A stretch of 32,000 bases of DNA from Dickeya dadantii NCPPB 898 (GTDB lineage: Bacteria; Pseudomonadota; Gammaproteobacteria; Enterobacterales; Enterobacteriaceae). The notes under the pieces are model-generated. The model saw only the letters and a program-made list of their open reading frames with translations. It did not search any database and was not told where the DNA came from. The translations under genes and the position numbers were made by a program. Each line of letters opens with the position of its first letter. Positions within the stretch are counted from its first letter, which is position 1. This document shows, in pieces, positions 4,943 to 30,779 of the stretch. The stretch lies in assembly GCF_000406145.1 (NCBI RefSeq), contig NZ_CM001976.1, positions 4,703,677 through 4,735,676 of the forward strand. Reading direction: 5' to 3'.

Positions 4943-4984
4943 TAACCGGGGAGACGGTTAGCACGACGCTGACGATCCAGCGTC
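4943..4984. terminator. two hairpins between convergent yiaC and the HNH gene
   Basis: The first is taaccg (4943-4948) / cggtta (4955-4960). The second is gacgctg (4965-4971) / cagcgtc (4978-4984). Neither has a clear U-tract. They sit exactly at the GC-rich to AT-rich transition. Confidence 0.4.
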
Positions 4985-4987
4985 ACC

Positions 4988-5635
4988 TTAATATTGCTCG
5001 TTATAACTCCAGGCATGGGTGAGAGCAGTACTGAACTCAAGAGCATATACCCTTGACAATGTCTCCTGTAAAAGCTCATCCAACTCTTCTTCTGTTAGTT
5101 CATTTTCCAGACTGTAAAACTCTTCAATTTCTTTAAGTTCCGCGTTAATAGCTTGTTTCCTGCTATTAAACAAAACAGTGTCATCATTTAAATTAAAAAC
5201 ACGAATAGTTTCCGAAGCCCTTACATGCTCAGCATCGGTAAGACCAGTACGGGGGCGAACCTTCCCAGTCGTCAAAAAATGAAGAAAGAATGACGGATTT
5301 TCCTCATCCGGTTTAATCAAATTCTCAGGTCTATATCCACCAGCGCCGTTATCTTTATAAATCCCACAACGCAACCATCCACCCTTCTGCGAAGTATCAC
5401 CGCAAGAGCCGAACAGATTTGCCCAGTCAAAAATTAAATCAGCATGCTCTTCACGCGTTCTGAAATGCTCAATGTGTTTACGATTTAAACGGCATTCACA
5501 ATAGGCACAAAAACCATGTTGCATAGCATCCAAGGCAGTCCAGATTTCATCCTTATTCGCAGCGCCCCAATGATCATGACCAGCGATTAGTTGATTTAAG
5601 CATTCTGGAGCTTCAGACCTATCTAATTTTTTCAT
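4988..5635 (-). CDS. HNH endonuclease, retron/Septu PtuB-like effector subunit
   Basis: The 215-aa ORF carries a CxxC...HxEH HNH core ([21 protein letters not shown]). Its ATG at 5635 overlaps the stop of the upstream ATPase gene (ATGA). It is the last gene of the RT-ATPase-HNH operon. Confidence 0.85.
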
Positions 5636-7287
5636 CCTTGCCGACCCTTATCCTGCTTCCTTGCTAGTGCCCTCAGCTTCATTGACTTGATTCGAATTAG
5701 GCTATCGCATCTCTTCAGTTCGAAACTATCCGGCCCGAAGTGTTCGCTTATTTTTTTATATAACTCTTTAGCTTCGAGGTTATTTTCGTAATCGCCTTGC
5801 TCCAATATAACCTCAAAATCCCCAACCCAATGAGACTCTGCAACACGAGGCGGTAATGCAAACACGTTCATAACCTGTTCAAGAATGTCAGAGTTAATTA
5901 CACCTTTAGTTTGAAACTTTGGCGAATCAAGTACTACTTCAGTCTCATCTCCATCGTCTCTGAATTGTCGTATGCATCTTTTGTCAACAGTTGAAAGTAC
6001 TATAGGGCTGTGTGTAGTTATGATTTGTTGGACATTGGGAAAGACTTTTCTCAGATTTTCAATTACATCTTGCTGCCACTTGGGATGAAGATGAAGCTCA
6101 ATCTCATCAATCAATATAATGCCTCTTCCTTCGAACGGGTTTTTCATTAGCGGATTTAGCATAATCATCCGTCGGGCAAGATCGGCGACTAAACTAAGGA
6201 AAACACGTTGTCCGTCAGAAAGTTGCTCAACTATTACCTGTTTACCGTCATTGATAACCTTAACCACATCGACACCGGAAGACGTTTCAACCCAAATATC
6301 ACTGATACTTGGCACTACAGTGCTAATAGCATAAACAATTAATTTTTTCTGTAAAGATTCTGGCAGATTATTGTTTTTTCGTTCTTTTGATATTAATTCA
6401 TTAAGCTTCATCTTAGTCTGCTCAAGTAAAGGTTTTACCGATAACAGACCATTATCAATCGATACTTGTAACTCGCTGACTTGCTGACGCAATATGTCAA
6501 CTGAAACAGACACATCATCGGCGGTTCGTTTATGCAGTGCGATAAACCATTCTATAAAATGATCGAAACGCCCAGCCCCAGCTAAGGCATTGGTATATGC
6601 ATCAAAGCGTTCTTCCCTCAGTCTCAGTTCCCCAGCGTCTTTTGTTAATTTATTGAATGGATGAGAACGTTCGACAGAATAAAATGCAAATATTGGAAGA
6701 TTCACAGTTTCATGCGCATTTACTATCCGCCATATATCTGATACTTCTTTGACCGATTTGACGATCCCATCCCGTCGCGTAGACGTTCCCGGTGCAGATC
6801 TCGAAAGTCGAACTTGTATATTTTTTAGCCCCTTACCAAAATAGAAATTACTATTTATATCAGCATATTTTTTTTCAGAACCATTTCTGATATCCGTTAT
6901 TTCGTTCAAACGCTGACCAATGCCGTCTTCTTTTAGAATATTTGCGCTAAACCAGCTTAGTGTTTTGGCAATTGCAGTAAGAATACTGGTTTTTCCTTCA
7001 CCATTGTTACCGATAATCACGGTGAGATCGTCTTCGAAATTCATGTCCAAAAACGCAAAACGACGAAAGTCAGTCAATGATAAAGAACGTAGATAGAAAT
7101 CATTTTCGGGACGAAATATGTTTAATTCGTTTACCTCACCAACCTGCAAGTAGCGCCAGCAGCGATCAAACCACTCCCTGGCTTTTTCTTTGCTATCGGG
7201 AGTGTCGCTTTTGGAAAAATGCTGATAAAGCTCAAATGCAGAAAGCAAATTCCCTCCCTTAGCTCTTCTTTCAAGTTGTTTAGTCAT
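5632..7287 (-). CDS. ABC/SMC-like (AAA_15/21-type) ATPase, retron/Septu PtuA-like effector subunit
   Basis: The 551-aa ORF has Walker [10 protein letters not shown], an ABC-signature-like LSDGQR, Walker [14 protein letters not shown] and an H-loop ITTHSP. Its ATG at 7287 overlaps the RT stop (ATGA). Confidence 0.85.
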
Positions 7288-8222
7288 TGATTGCTCCTGT
7301 GGATACTGCTGATTAAAGAAACAGTATACTTTTCATTCATTTTTATAATGAACTCGGGTTCGATATGATTAACAAAAGCCAGAAGGCCACACAGATATCC
7401 TATATCAGCTTCATCCAGTAAGCCGTATTTGTACTGATTGATTAGATGCTTTATAAAGCGCTTCCGTTCACGGCCCAAAGATAACTGTCCTTCATTATTA
7501 AGCGTGATACCGGTGACGTGACGGTTGTATGCCTTTGATGAGAATACCGTTTTGCCATGATTCAACCGCAAAGCATTTTTATATAGTTTCGTTAGCAATA
7601 CCTGAATAAAAGAGGGTAATAACCTCAACAGGTTTGGTGTGTTAGTGGAAAACGTTAGGTCATCAGCATATCTTGTATAAACAATATCCAATCTCAGGCA
7701 TTCGTCACTCAACAACCGATCAAACTCATAGAGGCAGAAATTTGAGACAGTTGGAGATGAAGGAGCCCCCACGCTCAGCATCAACGTATGTTTGCTGCGT
7801 TTTACTGGTTGCCAAAATAAGATTTTCTCCACGTAATTTTTGTCTTGCGTAGAAAATTGTGGGGTATCTACAGAACACTGCTCGAAGCAGTGCCAAAAAA
7901 CTGTAGGAGTGATTGAATTAAAAAAATCCTCCAGATCTGTTTTCAAAAGGTACCGGTTGTTGGCATGAGCGATCGCATTATCTCGGATACTTTTACCCTT
8001 CCGATATGCCATAGCAACATCATGAACAGGAAATGAGTAAAGCTGTATCAACGCTCGCTGATACTCTTTAAGAGCTTTAGCTGGCTGAGCGATGATCCTG
8101 AATCCATTCGTTCGTTTGGGGATTCGATAGACCTTGTACTTGAGAGGGGCGTTTTGCAGATAGAGTCTTACATCCGACTCACTTTGCCGTAAGATCGCAG
8201 CTAACGCTTTGATAATCTGCAT
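7284..8222 (-). CDS. retron-type reverse transcriptase
   Basis: The 312-aa ORF has the RT motifs [49 protein letters not shown] (YxDD) and LNHGKT. It also has the retron-associated NAxxH (NAIAH) and VTG (RHVTGITL) signatures. Its small size and the adjacent structured ncRNA fit a retron. Confidence 0.92.
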
Positions 8223-8231
8223 GACTTTACC

Positions 8232-8266
8232 TATAAAAAGCCCGGTAGCAAAGGTGCTTCCGGGCT
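8232..8266 (-). terminator. intrinsic-terminator-like hairpin plus U-tract between msd and the RT start codon
   Basis: On the minus strand the sequence reads agcccgg-a-agca-ccuu-ugcu-a-ccgggcu followed by uuuuaua. That is 7+4 bp with one A.A mismatch and a tetraloop. It ends 9 nt before the RT ATG at 8222. Confidence 0.45.
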
Positions 8267-8269
8267 CGA

Positions 8270-8412
8270 CTCTTTACTAGAGGAAGCGAAAGTGTCGCAA
8301 CCTGAAGGAGGAACGAATTCAGGTTGCGACACTTTCGCAACCCTAAATACGTTCAATAAATTAGTGTCTGGCTAATCACCCGACAAGACGTAATACGTCC
8401 AACACTAAAGAG
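8270..8412 (-). ncRNA. candidate retron msr-msd non-coding RNA (core between a1 and a2)
   Basis: It lies immediately upstream of the RT on the same strand. Candidate a1 is cucuuua (8412-8406) and a2 is uaaagag (8276-8270), giving 7 bp, with an unpaired G at 8405 directly 3' of a1 as the candidate branching G. The msr part has small hairpins (gacgu-auu-acguc; auuag-ccagaca-cuaau). The msd part carries the 21-bp perfect hairpin at 8286-8338. The exact transcript ends are unknown. Confidence 0.6.
8286..8338. repeat. perfect 21-bp inverted repeat (predicted msd stem-loop)
   Basis: gcgaaagtgtcgcaacctgaa (8286-8306) is the exact reverse complement of ttcaggttgcgacactttcgc (8318-8338). The loop is 11 nt. 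Confidence 0.9.
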
Positions 8413-8437
8413 CTTCGTAAGCTTAACTCACTATCCC

Positions 8438-8466
8438 ACTATAAACAACTCCGTTTTTCTTGTTTA
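8438..8466 (-). promoter_or_regulatory. possible sigma70 promoter for msr-msd/RT operon
   Basis: On the minus strand, taaaca (8466-8461) is followed by a 17-nt spacer and then tatagt (8443-8438). This would start transcription about 20 nt upstream of a1. It is a weak motif-only call. Confidence 0.3.
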
Positions 8467-8976
8467 ATTTCATATAATTACTTGAAATGTAATCTATAAT
8501 GCATGATAAAATATGCAAGTCGTGAACGATGATTTGGGAGGATAAGATTTGGGCCTGATTGGTACCTACAGTCAAACTGGGCATCACTCTTTCAGGTTGT
8601 CAGGTGCCACAGTATCGCGCTGAAAAACTTCATAAAACTTCCCTTCATCTGGAGGGTTATCTTTACCATTTATGATGTTACTTAACGCTTGATAACGGTT
8701 GCGTTTCATCAGGCCGGTTGTTGTACTACAAGCTGGGCAGCCCCTGTGCGGGAGAGCTATATCACCTCACAACTCGACACGTTAAGAGATAAAAAATAAT
8801 AATATCTGATTGTTTATCATGATATTTTATTGAATCCTCCAATCGTTTTTGGGCGATGGCACGGCAAAGACCGGGCATCAATATGCGAAGCTAGTAGAGC
8901 ACCCTTTTTTAAAAGACCGCTTTTAAATACAAGCGTCGTTTTAATCAGACAATCGCCTATCAGCCGGAGTGAACTG

Positions 8977-9939
8977 ATGAAACCTGAAGTGATCCTCTAC
9001 AGAAGTATCCCTGACGCGCTGCGCGCCCGCCTTGAGCAATACGCCACCGTGCATGAATTCAACGGGCTGCCGCCGGTCGATCACCCCGTACTTGAACGGG
9101 TGGAAGGATTGATCGGCTCCGGCGCCACGGTTAGCCGGGAATTTCTCTCCCATTTGCCGCGCCTGCGCGCCGTTTCCACCATCTCTGTCGGCTACGACAA
9201 TATCGATCTCGCCACCCTTAACGACAAAGGGGCGCTGCTGATGCACACGCCGACCGCTCTGACGGAAACAGTGGCGGATGCGGTGCTGACGCTGATGCTG
9301 ATGACCGCCCGCCGCGGGCTGGAAGTCGCAGAGCGGGTTAAAGCCGGAGAGTGGAAAACCAGTGTCGATAAAGACTGGTTTGGCATTGACGTGCACCACA
9401 AAACCATCGGTATTCTGGGTATGGGGCGCATCGGCCTGGCGGTGGCGCAGCGCGCGCATCTGGGCTTTGGCATGCCGGTGCTGTACCACGCCCGCCGTCA
9501 TCATCAGGAAGCGGAAACCCGCTTCAACGCCGGTTACCGCGACCTCGACGGCTTGCTGGCGGAGTCGGATTTTCTGTGCATCACCCTGCCGTTGACCCCG
9601 CAGACCCACCATCTGATCGGCCGCGAACAGTTGAAGAAAATGAAATCCAGCGCGATTGTGATCAACATCGGCCGCGGCCCGGTTATCGACGAACCGGCGT
9701 TAATTGAAGCGCTGACCGACGGCACTATTTACGCTGCCGGGCTGGATGTGTTCGAGCAGGAACCGCTGCCGGTAGACTCGCCGCTGCTGAAGCTGCCCAA
9801 CGTGGTCGCGCTGCCGCATATCGGCTCGGCCACCCATGAAACCCGCTATAACATGTCGGCCTGCGCGGTGGACAACCTGATCGCCGCACTGAGCGGCAAT
9901 GTCAAAGAGAACTGCGTCAATCCGGACGTGCTGAAGTAA
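8977..9939 (+). CDS. ghrB: glyoxylate/hydroxypyruvate reductase B (2-ketoacid reductase)
   Basis: From the ATG at 8977 (GGAG at 8966-8969) the product [21 protein letters not shown]...[21 protein letters not shown]...[15 protein letters not shown]...[11 protein letters not shown] is colinear with E. coli GhrB/TkrA. The 49-codon extension in the ORF track (from 8830) lies in AT-rich upstream DNA and is unlikely to be translated. Confidence 0.93.
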
Positions 9940-9970
9940 TTCAGCCAGTTACCTCCGTTATCAATTCAAT

Positions 9971-10002
9971 ATTCCCCCTTCCGGATATCAGGAAGGGGGA
10001 AT
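9971..10002. terminator. bidirectional terminator hairpin between convergent ghrB and the DUF4432-like gene
   Basis: attcccccttcc (9971-9982) pairs with ggaagggggaat (9991-10002), a 12-bp perfect stem with an 8-nt loop and A/T-rich flanks. Confidence 0.7.
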
Positions 10003-10041
10003 AACGGCATGAACCCTGACCTTAAGCTACGCTAAGATCGA

Positions 10042-27716: not shown

Positions 27717-29462
27717 ATGTCTTCTATTACCGAAATTGAAACCGCAACTGATGCGGCATCAGAAAAAACAACATTGATTGACGGCTTTCACCTTTTTCTG
27801 GAAGCGCTCAAACTGAATGATATCGATACCCTCTTCGGTTTGCCCGGCATTCCGATTACCGACCTTCTGCGTATGGCTCAGGCGGAAGGGATGCGGGTGA
27901 TTTCTTTCCGTCATGAGCAGCACGCCGGTAATGCAGCGGCGGCGGCCGGTTTCCTCACCGCCAAACCCGGTATCTGTATGACGGTTTCAGCGCCCGGCTT
28001 TTTGAATGGTTTGACCGCGCTCGCCAACGCCACCACCAACTGTTTTCCTATGATCCTGATCAGTGGTTCCAGCGAACGCGAAATCGTCGATTTACAGCAA
28101 GGCGATTACGAAGAAATGGATCAACTGGCCATCGCCAAACCGCTGTGTAAGGCCGCCTTCCGCGTGTTACGGGCCGAAGATATCGGTGTCGGTATTGCCC
28201 GTGCCATCCGCGCAGCCGTATCCGGGCGCCCCGGCGGGGTCTATCTGGATCTGCCGGCCAGGCTGTTCTCGCAAACCATGCCGCTGGATGCCGGGCGTAA
28301 ATCGTTAATCAGGGTCGTAGACGCCGCGCCGCGCCAGCTGCCGGCACCGGATTCGGTTACCCGGGCGCTTGAACTGCTCAAAAACGCCAGAAAGCCCCTC
28401 ATTCTGCTGGGAAAAGGAGCGGCTTACGCACGTGCCGATGCCGAGATTCGCGCTTTGGTCGAAAAAACCGGTATCCCCTACTTGCCGATGTCCATGGCCA
28501 AGGGCTTGCTTCCTGACACGCATGAACTGTCGGCCGCCGCCACACGTTCCTATGTATTGAAAGAAGCGGATGTGGTGCTGCTGATCGGTGCGCGTCTGAA
28601 CTGGTTGCTCTCGCACGGTAAAGGCAAGACTTGGGGGCAGGAAAACGGGCCGAAGAAATTTATCCAGATCGATATCGCGCCGACTGAAATCGACAGCAAT
28701 GTCGCCATTGATGCGCCGCTTATCGGTGATATCGGCTCTTGCGTAAAAGCATTGTTGAACGGCATCGGCAACGACTGGGCCAAACCGTCGAATGACTGGA
28801 CCGGCGTTATCGCCGAACGCAAAGCCAAAAACGTCAACAAGATGGCCGACATGCTGGCCGCACGCCCATCACCGATGAACTTCCATAGCACACTGAGCGT
28901 GGTGAAAGAGGTCGTGAAGGACAACCCGGAAGCCATCGTCGTCAGCGAAGGCGCCAACACGCTGGATTTTGGCCGCAGCATCGTGGACATGTACCTGCCG
29001 CGTAAACGCCTGGATGTCGGCACCTGGGGAATTATGGGCATCGGCATGGGCTTCGCCGCCGCCGGCGCGGTCGTGACGGGCAAGCCGGTCATCGCCATTG
29101 AGGGCGATTCCGCCTTCGGCTTCAGCGGCATGGAGGTTGAAACCCTCTGCCGCTATCACCTGCCCGTCTGCATTGTCGTGTTCAACAACAACGGCATTTA
29201 CAAAGGGACCGACACCAATGCCTCCGGCGGCGCCGACATGGCTCCCACCGTGTTCGTCAAAGACGCACGCTACGAAATGATGATGCAGGCCTTTGGCGGC
29301 GTGGGCGTGCATGTCACCACCACTGACGAACTGCACCGCGCCATGAATGAAGCCATTGCCTCCGGCAAACCAACGCTTATCAACGCCGTGATTGACGAAA
29401 CCGTCGGCACCGAAAGTGGCCGCATCACCAACCTGAACCCTGCCAAGGCGATTAAAAAATAA
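27717..29462 (+). CDS. oxc: oxalyl-CoA decarboxylase (ThDP-dependent)
   Basis: The 581-aa ORF has the ThDP-enzyme layout (GIPITDL...FRHEQHAGNAA; GDSAFGFSGMEVET...NN). Its length and context, next to frc, are typical of Oxc. Confidence 0.93.
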   Translation: MSSITEIETATDAASEKTTLIDGFHLFLEALKLNDIDTLFGLPGIPITDLLRMAQAEGMRVISFRHEQHAGNAAAAAGFLTAKPGICMTVSAPGFLNGLTALANATTNCFPMILISGSSEREIVDLQQGDYEEMDQLAIAKPLCKAAFRVLRAEDIGVGIARAIRAAVSGRPGGVYLDLPARLFSQTMPLDAGRKSLIRVVDAAPRQLPAPDSVTRALELLKNARKPLILLGKGAAYARADAEIRALVEKTGIPYLPMSMAKGLLPDTHELSAAATRSYVLKEADVVLLIGARLNWLLSHGKGKTWGQENGPKKFIQIDIAPTEIDSNVAIDAPLIGDIGSCVKALLNGIGNDWAKPSNDWTGVIAERKAKNVNKMADMLAARPSPMNFHSTLSVVKEVVKDNPEAIVVSEGANTLDFGRSIVDMYLPRKRLDVGTWGIMGIGMGFAAAGAVVTGKPVIAIEGDSAFGFSGMEVETLCRYHLPVCIVVFNNNGIYKGTDTNASGGADMAPTVFVKDARYEMMMQAFGGVGVHVTTTDELHRAMNEAIASGKPTLINAVIDETVGTESGRITNLNPAKAIKK

Positions 29463-29501
29463 GCGTAACGGCAATTAATGAATAACCATGGAGATAATTT
29501 T

Positions 29502-30779
29502 ATGAATAACAACAACGATCTGCCTTTGGCTGGCGTCAGAATCATCGACTTCACACACGTGCAGGCCGGCCCTGCATGTACACAAATGCTGGCGTGGTTC
29601 GGTGCCGATGTCATCAAAATCGAACGTCCCGGCTCGGGGGACATCACCCGTAACCAGTTGCGCGACATTCCAGATGCGGACGCCCTGTACTTCACCATGC
29701 TCAACAGCAACAAACGTTCGCTCACCCTGGATACCAAAAAGCCTGAAGGCAAGGAAGTTCTGACCCGCCTTATCAAAGAGTGTGACGTGATGGTGGAAAA
29801 CTTCGGCCCCGGCGCGCTGGATCGCATGGGTTTTACCTGGGAGCACATTCAGGAACTGAACCCTCGCATGATTCTTGCCTCGGTTAAAGGCTTCAGCGAA
29901 GGCCACCACTACGAACACCTGCGAGCTTATGAAAATGTCGCCCAATGTGCGGGGGGTGCGGCCTCAACCACCGGCTGGTGGAAGGGTGAGAACGCCGGGC
30001 CGACCATTTCGGCTGCCGCGTTAGGCGACAGCAACACCGGTATGCATTTGGCTATCGGCATCCTGACCGCGTACATCGGCCGTCAGAAGACCGGCAAAGG
30101 GCAGAAAGTCGCCTGCGCCATGCAGGATGCGGTGCTTAACCTCTGCCGCGTCAAAATGCGCGATCAGCTGCGTCTGGACAAAGTCGGCTATCTGGAAGAG
30201 TACCCGCAGTATCCGCATGAAGCGTTCACCGACGTGGTGCCGCGCGGCGGTAATGCCGGCGGCGGCGGCCAGCCAGGTTGGATCCTCAAGTGCAAAGGCT
30301 GGGAGACCGACCCCAATGCTTACATCTACTTCACAGTACAGGACCTGGTCTGGACGCCGATTTGCGACGCGATAGAACGCCCGGAATGGCGAGACGATCC
30401 CGCCTATACCACCCCGAAGGCGCGTCAACCGCACATCATGGATATTTTCGGCGCCATTGAGAGTTTCATTTTGAGGGCCGGTAAAAGCAAGTTCGACGCG
30501 GTGGAGTACTTCGGGAAGTTCGGCATCCCCTGTGCGCCAGTGATGTCGATGAAGGAACTGCTGCACGACGAATCGCTGCGTAAGAGCGGCTCCATCGTCG
30601 AAGTGCCGCACAAAGTGCGCGGCAGTTACTGGACCGTCGGCTGCCCGATCAAGTTCTCGGCTCTCAAACCTGAGATCACCGCCTCGCCGCTGCTCGGTGA
30701 GCACACCGACGACGTGCTGGCGGAACTGGGCTACTCGAAAGAGCAGATTGCGCTCATTCACACAGCCAAAGCGGTGTAA
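29502..30779 (+). CDS. frc: formyl-CoA:oxalate CoA-transferase
   Basis: From the ATG at 29502 (GGAGA RBS) the product ...[34 protein letters not shown]...[16 protein letters not shown]...[31 protein letters not shown] is colinear with E. coli YfdW/Frc and Oxalobacter Frc. Confidence 0.93.

Follow-up and report, generated by a model that had tools for sequence, protein, structure and literature searches.

A probable type I-A retron anti-phage system, orthologous to Retron-Eco7, on a low-GC island between yiaC and ghrB of Dickeya dadantii

The 32,000-nucleotide stretch of Dickeya dadantii NCPPB 898 DNA analysed here (contig NZ_CM001976.1, positions 4,703,677 to 4,735,676; hereafter the window, with coordinates counted from its first letter) carries a type I-A retron unit at 4988-8413 on the minus strand, in which an msr-msd non-coding RNA (ncRNA) is followed in turn by the genes for a reverse transcriptase (RT), the ATPase PtuA and the nuclease PtuB. 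The three protein genes correspond to minus-strand open reading frames (ORFs) at 7284-8222, 5632-7287 and 4988-5635. An earlier, sequence-only reading of this DNA had claimed that these genes are joined by four-nucleotide ATGA overlaps (7284-7287 and 5632-5635), and both the ORF list and a reading of the coding strand, which shows ATGA at each gene junction, bear this out. The span given in that reading, 4988-8466, is right for the functional unit, and the block of foreign DNA is larger. The protein genes, the ncRNA and the surrounding island are as follows.

7284..8222, minus strand: retron RT, 312 aa (WP_038912299.1); PADLOC, NCBIfam and comparison with the Ec78 RT
5632..7287, minus strand: PtuA, an ABC/SMC-type ATPase, 551 aa (WP_038912298.1); PADLOC, NCBIfam and comparison with Ec78 PtuA
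4988..5635, minus strand: PtuB, an HNH nuclease with a Cys4 zinc finger, 215 aa (WP_038912296.1); PADLOC, NCBIfam and comparison with Ec78 PtuB
8269..8413, minus strand: msr-msd ncRNA, from the a1 to the a2 inverted repeat; Rfam, folding and covariation
4950..8795, no strand: foreign island of 3,846 bp, about 40% GC in a genome of about 60% GC; boundaries from blastn

The identity of the three proteins is settled by full-length matches to solved structures and by curated equivalog models. A search of the PDB aligned the RT, PtuA and PtuB end to end with Ec78/Eco7 chains, with E-values of 3e-145, 3e-221 and 5e-75 and with identities to Retron-Eco7 (Ec78) of 67.6%, 62.0% and 53.0%, respectively. 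All three proteins score above the curated NCBIfam cut-offs (for the retron St85-family RT, Ec78 PtuA and Ec78 PtuB), the PADLOC models match them over their full length, and the E-values of the hidden Markov model matches range from 1e-64 to 1e-203. RefSeq holds the exact proteins from D. dadantii, naming the RT a 'retron St85 family RNA-directed DNA polymerase' and the effectors 'retron Ec78 anti-phage system effector ATPase PtuA / HNH endonuclease PtuB', and close variants occur in D. dianthicola. The sequence-only reading had recognised the gene order of type I-A retrons (Ec78/Retron-Eco7) and had considered the class to be known already; PADLOC, NCBIfam, Rfam and PDB matches agree with the first of these statements, and the Ec78-type names that RefSeq gives the exact proteins agree with the second.

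The sequence-testable features that define type I-A retrons (Mestre et al. 2020 classification; Ec78/Eco7 group) are all present: a clade-1 RT, an IA1/IIA1 ncRNA, an ABC ATPase, an HNH nuclease of cluster 39_1 (PtuB) downstream of the ATPase, and the operon order. We therefore regard it as very probable that the locus represents an intact anti-phage retron of type I-A, an ortholog of Retron-Eco7 (Ec78) from E. coli, and that it resides on a 3.85-kb island acquired horizontally. The family to which it belongs has been characterised thoroughly. This member had not been studied before, automatic annotation had already recognised it, and our literature search found no papers on a Dickeya retron.

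The RT displays each of the motifs that had been read from the letters, namely NAIAH at residue 82 (the NAxxH motif), YADD at 185-188 and VTG at 236, and Pfam assigns it to RVT_1. Among 71 PADLOC models, RT_I-A is best at 455.5 bits. The NCBIfam model retron_St85_RT scores 308.3 against a cut-off of 235, the group II intron RT model reaches only 37.7 against a cut-off of 300, and Drt2, Drt3a and Drt4 give at most 35 bits against cut-offs of 200-450. On profile scores, the protein thus sides with retron RTs and not with those of group II introns, diversity-generating retroelements, Abi or UG systems, in keeping with the earlier claim of a retron RT. These scores, together with the identity to the Ec78 RT, place it in retron RT clade 1 (I-A/II-A1).

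Three of the matches might suggest a different system, in which a type II-A (St85/Sen2-like) retron is the source of the RT and ncRNA, or in which a free-standing RT lies beside an unrelated stand-alone Septu pair. NCBIfam calls the RT 'St85 family', RT_II-A is the second-best PADLOC model (359.4 bits), and the msd region matches Salmonella STnc400 (Rfam RF02058, the St85-type msd region; 8228-8345, 59.5 bits, under its gathering score). The STnc400 match is understandable because types I-A and II-A1 (St85/Sen2) have one ncRNA-RT module in common (PMC7736814). Retron-Sen2 (St85), of type II-A1, resembles the Dickeya locus precisely in this module, since the 'St85 family' RT model is passed and the msd and 3' hairpin match STnc400. 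However, RT_I-A is ahead of RT_II-A by 96 bits, and the Dickeya locus has PtuA and PtuB in place of a II-A effector gene; with only these two genes downstream, it falls outside the type II-A1 definition. Stand-alone Septu (8ee4, 8ee7) consists of a homologous pair of ABC ATPase and HNH nuclease, but it lacks an RT and ncRNA, and its PtuA lacks the retron-specific N-terminal domain. The Dickeya PtuA has this domain, aligning with Ec78 PtuA over residues 1-548, and scores only 124 bits against Septu 8ee4; PtuB scores 31 bits against stand-alone Septu. Moreover, the PtuA residues that bind multicopy single-stranded DNA (msDNA) are conserved, and the ATGA overlaps couple the RT gene translationally to the effectors; with its RT and ncRNA, the locus lies outside the definition of stand-alone Septu as well. 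Both versions of this alternative are effectively refuted, and we return to the type I-A assignment.

The effectors support this assignment. The 551-aa ATPase carries the Walker A, signature, Walker B and H-loop motifs attributed to it earlier (GNNGEGKT at 93, LSDGQ at 356, LIDE at 392 and TTHS at 424). It is matched best in PADLOC by PtuA (673 bits), with ATPase_I-A close behind (615.7 bits), scores 648.6 with the NCBIfam Ec78 PtuA equivalog (cut-off 500), and is recognised by Pfam as AAA_15/AAA_21/AAA_23/SMC_N. The 215-aa nuclease, described earlier as a CxxC...HxEH HNH protein, indeed has CAYC at 43 and HIEH at 54. Its PADLOC scores are 235 bits for PtuB and 214 bits for HNH_I-A, and NCBIfam returns 224.5 for the Ec78 PtuB equivalog (cut-off 150) and 143.4 for TIGR02646 (cut-off 52); Pfam gives no match to this protein. 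The PADLOC check proposed with the sequence-only reading therefore gives RT_I-A for the RT and puts the I-A effector models close behind the PtuA and PtuB models.

We mapped onto the three proteins every residue whose mutation abolished or reduced Eco7 defence (PMC12673091). In the RT, Y32, R42, Q46, D187 and D188 are all kept. In PtuA, N95, the Walker A residues K99 and T100, D394/E395 (Eco7 D395/E396), H399/H401 (Eco7 H400/H402) and D520 (Eco7 D521) are retained, as are the msdDNA contacts R126, R163, R171 and K180. PtuB preserves the catalytic H57, H54 and the zinc-finger cysteines C43, C46, C78 and C90. A substitution in PtuA relative to Eco7, K97E, falls at a non-catalytic position of Walker A.

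The sequence-only reading also placed a structured non-coding region, with a perfect 21-bp hairpin, directly upstream of the RT gene, and three results uphold this. First, a perfect 21-bp inverted repeat (8286-8306 / 8318-8338) with an 11-nucleotide loop lies 64 nucleotides upstream of the RT start. Second, the 193-nucleotide ncRNA region folds at -84.4 kcal/mol (z = -7.7 against 200 shuffles) into the canonical retron topology, with an a1/a2 helix, two msr hairpins and then the msd hairpin. Third, the Rfam msr model (RF00170) matches 8348-8413 on the minus strand at 77.4 bits, compared with a gathering score of 52. The elements of the ncRNA and of its surroundings are given below, in which SL1 and SL2 denote stem-loops 1 and 2.

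8406..8413, minus strand: a1 inverted repeat GCUCUUUA, whose partner a2 is at 8269-8276; inverted-repeat search and fold
8405, minus strand: predicted branching (priming) guanosine, directly 3' of a1 and opposite G8277; from the a1/a2 helix
8365..8400, minus strand: two msr hairpins, SL1 at 8386-8400 and SL2 at 8365-8385; fold and covariation (helices 2 and 3, 100% paired)
8278..8354, minus strand: msd template with the 21-bp hairpin; hairpin found directly, ends placed by homology to Eco7
8235..8267, minus strand: terminator-like hairpin GAGCCCGG...CCGGGCUU followed by a U-run; inverted-repeat search, fold and covariation (helix 7)
8438..8466, minus strand: candidate sigma-70 promoter of the retron operon, TAAACA, 17-nucleotide spacer, TATAGT; consensus scan, 9/12

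Comparative evidence for this structure comes from an alignment of the Dickeya ncRNA with 10 other type I-A loci, from Moellerella, Providencia, Pantoea, Photorhabdus, Erwinia, Shewanella, a soil metagenome-assembled genome and E. coli. The Rfam msr model scores above its gathering score in all 10 comparison loci. Across the 11 loci, 97.4% of cells are paired and 19 of 50 pairs show compensatory changes, a value reached by none of 500 shuffles; sliding the partners by 1-3 columns lowers pairing to about 43%. The a1/a2 helix comprises 8 bp, of which seven are invariant in the alignment. The same is true of G8405, which we predict to be the branching guanosine, as its position fits the description of Eco7, where the stem ends with the branching G0 and an opposing G (PMC12673091).

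The same comparison yields a predicted DNA product. In Eco7, SL2 is the handle bound by the RT thumb, and reverse transcription ends at the point at which U(-49) is flipped out and the active site is blocked by A(-47) (PMC12673091). The linker at 8355-8364 in Dickeya ends in U8355 and includes A8357, which match these two residues, and it lies within a block, TTTATTGAAC, that is almost invariant in the alignment. From the correspondence of U8355 and A8357 to the Eco7 termination residues, the msdDNA is therefore predicted by homology to be 77 nucleotides long, with the plus-strand sequence from 8278 to 8354. The prerequisites for making msDNA, namely YADD, SL2, the U8355/A8357 termination linker and the candidate branching G, are all present in the sequence.

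The hairpin at 8235-8267 follows the msd a2 repeat and precedes the RT ribosome-binding site. All 11 loci keep it, with compensatory changes in four of its six pairs, and it is included in the Rfam STnc400 model. Our consensus terminator scan missed this element, since its apical part is larger than the scan's loop limit, and it is folding and covariation that reveal the hairpin. It looks like an intrinsic terminator or attenuator, and it might attenuate read-through into the RT, ptuA and ptuB genes and in this way fix how much ncRNA is made relative to protein. The word 'terminator' is absent from the retron papers that we searched for it, and an attenuating role of the hairpin is not raised in the papers that we consulted. 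Farther upstream, about 95 bp preceding msr (8424-8508) are 88% conserved in D. dianthicola, and conservation ends beyond this point. The next segment, 8509-8745, is about 240 bp of AT-rich island DNA that has no match in any locus we fetched, the D. dianthicola retron loci included, no Rfam match and no convincing ORF.

The closest characterised relative is Retron-Eco7 (Ec78), a type I-A retron of E. coli with several cryo-EM structures (9l7p, 9kjx, 9vhe, 9nnb and others). The two systems agree in operon order (msr-msd, RT, PtuA, PtuB), in protein lengths to within 1-2 residues, in all tested catalytic, zinc-finger, dimer-interface and msDNA-contact residues, and in ncRNA architecture, a1/a2 sequence, termination linker and the predicted 77-nucleotide msdDNA. 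They differ in genus and in genomic setting, as the Dickeya locus occupies the yiaC-ghrB spacer whereas the E. coli M121 locus is in an island flanked by integrase and IS1 genes. They also differ in PtuB R160K, PtuB E192T and the PtuA Walker A change K97E. The apex of the msd hairpin is a further difference, with a perfect 21-bp stem in Dickeya and one of about 17-19 bp in the Ec78-like locus of E. coli.

Two other type I-A retrons are more distant. That of E. coli FORC82 (9n69; George et al. 2025, PMC12475279) shares the four-part architecture and likewise senses infection through degradation of its msDNA by a phage nuclease, but the Dickeya RT, PtuA and PtuB score 283, 262 and 111 bits against its proteins compared with 486, 739 and 255 bits for those of Ec78. 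Among its own features are an msDNA of about 90 nucleotides, the depletion of tRNA-Ser, and the fact that it is not evaded by T5 tRNAs or ORF75. Retron-Eco4 (Ec83; 9e8z) likewise combines an RT with PtuA and PtuB (260 bits for the RT and 197 bits for PtuA), and it is said to degrade single-stranded DNA, not tRNA (cited in PMC12673091).

Work on Eco7 provides the framework for a proposed mechanism. [quoted passage not shown] Additional papers on mechanism that underlie our interpretation are PMC12819146, PMC12475279 and PMC11555353. In Dickeya, a single transcript beginning just upstream of 8413 would yield the ncRNA, and read-through of the hairpin and U-run would yield the mRNAs for RT, PtuA and PtuB. 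By homology, the RT would bind SL2, prime from the 2'-OH of G8405 and copy msd into a DNA of about 77 nucleotides with a 21-bp hairpin core. Two PtuA dimers, each with one PtuB, would clasp the msDNA hairpin (PtuA4-PtuB2), and RT-msDNA would serve as the antitoxin that keeps PtuAB inactive, an arrangement shown for Eco7 whose PtuA-msDNA contact residues are conserved in Dickeya. From the conserved R126, R163, R171 and K180 and the PtuA N-terminal domain, we infer that RT-msDNA would neutralise PtuAB and that the retron would confer protection against phage. On infection, the msDNA would be cut by a flap endonuclease or exonuclease of the phage, the part that D15 of T5-like phages plays for Eco7, and PtuAB would be set free, as shown for Eco7 and for the FORC82 retron. 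Lastly, the freed PtuAB, which would require ATP hydrolysis, may deplete a host tRNA with a long variable arm, such that translation stops and the infection aborts.

The target and the trigger are the least certain steps of this scheme. As a first guess, the most likely target is tRNA-Tyr, as in Eco7, because the Dickeya PtuB is closer to Ec78 PtuB (255 bits) than to the FORC82 HNH protein (111 bits).

Several observations weigh against the overall interpretation. To begin with, msDNA production, toxicity and phage protection by the Dickeya locus are predicted from sequence, and the promoter-like sites in the region, as found by the consensus scan, are no more numerous than in shuffled sequence, so that the assignment of 8438-8466 is weak. 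The hairpin and U-run that separate the ncRNA from the RT gene might likewise be viewed as a sign that the locus is a decaying or silent relic that provides no defence. We consider this very unlikely, given that the three ORFs are full length relative to Ec78 and every tested catalytic residue is intact, and that the hairpin and U-run are conserved in functional relatives, including the Ec78-like locus of E. coli. Furthermore, D. dadantii and D. dianthicola both carry the locus intact, with 95-98% identity between the two species, which argues for a maintained function.

A second concern is that PtuB is only 53% identical to its Eco7 counterpart and that two of its salt-bridge partners to PtuA differ (R160K and E192T). 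In Eco7 itself, charge reversal of the PtuA partners of R160 and E192 had no effect (PMC12673091). In addition, the tRNA target can differ within the type I-A family, because the FORC82 retron depletes tRNA-Ser (PMC12475279) and not tRNA-Tyr as in Ec78. The Dickeya locus could thus be the same system with a tRNA target or phage trigger unlike that of Eco7, for example tRNA-Ser or another class II tRNA, or nucleases of Dickeya phages unrelated to T5. PtuB being the most diverged component and the apical part of the msd hairpin being unlike that of the E. coli Ec78-like locus are in line with such a shift. The PtuB bit scores given above point the other way, however, and truncation of the msd loop left FORC82 defence unchanged. 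On balance, a different target or trigger is possible but has the lesser share of the probability. We view as similarly tentative a broader proposal, in which the Dickeya retron differs functionally from Eco7 (in a class II tRNA or a phage nuclease) and the conserved 8235-8267 hairpin is a functional attenuator that sets a high ncRNA-to-protein ratio in I-A and II-A1 retrons.

A third concern is that the final step of Eco7 is itself unsettled. Cleavage of tRNA-Tyr occurs in vivo, two groups could not reconstitute it in vitro, and one group saw ATPase-dependent nicking of supercoiled plasmid by released Ec78 PtuAB. Given also that the top PADLOC models for both effectors are those of Septu PtuA and PtuB, the released complex might chiefly nick or degrade host or phage DNA, in the manner of stand-alone Septu, with any loss of tRNA being secondary. 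This seems improbable to us. Eco7 makes a defined cut in tRNA-Tyr in vivo (U47/C48), its toxicity is rescued by overexpression of tRNA-Tyr, and phage tRNA-Tyr counteracts its defence. Moreover, the purified Eco7 complex has almost no DNase activity, and the FORC82 retron leads to nucleoid compaction rather than DNA degradation. Depletion of a tRNA by PtuAB therefore remains our preferred account of the last step.

The boundaries of the island were established by blastn against nine retron-less D. dadantii contigs, the sister contigs having been fetched by the flanking tag gene. Homology of these contigs to the window ends at 4949 and resumes at 8796, and among D. dadantii contigs with the tag-yiaC-ghrB arrangement the retron is present in one and absent from nine. 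The insertion site proposed in the sequence-only reading is confirmed, with a yiaC-like GNAT acetyltransferase gene on one side and a ghrB-like 2-hydroxyacid dehydrogenase gene on the other. The island is not a simple insertion, as it replaces a conserved 352-bp yiaC-ghrB spacer of 54% GC (9033-9384 in sister contig L012) found in the nine retron-less contigs; when searched against the window, this spacer gave only chance matches of 10-15 nucleotides. A low-GC, strain-variable island of this kind is typical of defence systems.

Two possible origins were considered and rejected. Insertion by a mobile element finds no support at the island ends, where a search revealed no direct repeats, integrase or tRNA gene; the window as a whole is also free of tRNA genes. 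Derivation from an E. coli element was set aside on the basis of a survey of 5,426 complete E. coli genomes, from which the locus is absent except for one distant Ec78-like match (73% over the RT gene and ncRNA region). In D. dianthicola, the retron occupies the same site. Between the two Dickeya species, identity is 95-96% for the retron genes and 98% for the ncRNA, compared with 90-94% for the neighbouring core genes (tag, yiaC, DUF4432) and 81% for ghrB. This pattern is consistent with two histories: the retron may be an old resident that has been lost repeatedly, or homologous recombination through the flanks may have exchanged it. The low value for ghrB (window 8977-9939, compared with D. 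dianthicola contig L023) may mark a recombination tract tied to the hotspot.

One D. dianthicola contig (L022, 6936-7907) at first appeared to hold a new effector, as it carries the exact RT in the phn operon together with a 323-aa protein that has no Pfam hit. We rejected this candidate. The 323-aa product is the N-terminal 60% of PtuA (PADLOC PtuA, 317 bits) and ends at an X that reflects N bases in a scaffold join, and the apparent effector is thus an assembly artefact, because PtuA is truncated at the N-containing join.

The ORF list gives ghrB as a plus-strand frame at 8830-9939 (369 aa, with a TTG start at 8830), which is over-extended, since sister genomes encode 320 aa, which puts the start near 8977. 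About 750 bp of non-coding DNA accordingly separate the RT start from ghrB. The best promoter-like site of the region (8774-8803, plus strand; TCGACA, 18-nucleotide spacer, AATAAT; 10/12) points toward ghrB across the junction of island and core. Because this site straddles the junction, the island may supply the -35 element of a ghrB promoter in retron strains.

A second strain-variable slot lies directly downstream of ghrB and is empty in this window (9940-10041). In sister D. dadantii contigs, it holds an AbiL-like two-gene system (10898-12657 in L012; also in L013, L014, L017 and L019), which PADLOC scores at 230 bits for AbiLi and 41 bits for AbiLii. With the retron upstream and the AbiL-like slot downstream, ghrB is flanked by two independent defence slots, and the yiaC-ghrB region can be regarded as a small defence hotspot with two independently variable positions.

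Phage biocontrol is being developed against Dickeya dadantii, an important agent of soft rot in plants, and strain-variable defence content at the yiaC-ghrB site may affect phage host range. The locus also adds well-supported annotation, comprising an ncRNA, a candidate branching G and a predicted 77-nucleotide msDNA, features that protein-based pipelines such as RefSeq naming are not expected to capture. With proteins 53-68% identical to those of Eco7, the Dickeya retron offers a possible point of comparison for the choice of tRNA target and the range of triggers in type I-A retrons, and if its target or trigger does prove to differ, it would be a natural variant for mapping tRNA specificity in PtuB. 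It is also another compact candidate among retrons for editing tools. The practical value is modest, and the current understanding of retrons is unchanged.

Two further arrangements were seen during this work. In Pantoea coffeiphila (contig L003, 4169-5578), a CRISPR array of at least 24 repeats (Rfam CRISPR-DR4) is followed about 230 bp downstream by a type I-A retron. The remainder of the Dickeya window contains ordinary housekeeping, transport and oxalate-catabolism genes; at 27717-30779 on the plus strand, a gene for a TPP enzyme (581 aa) is followed by one for a formyl-CoA transferase (NCBIfam, 742 bits), which looks like an oxc-frc oxalate catabolism pair unrelated to the retron.

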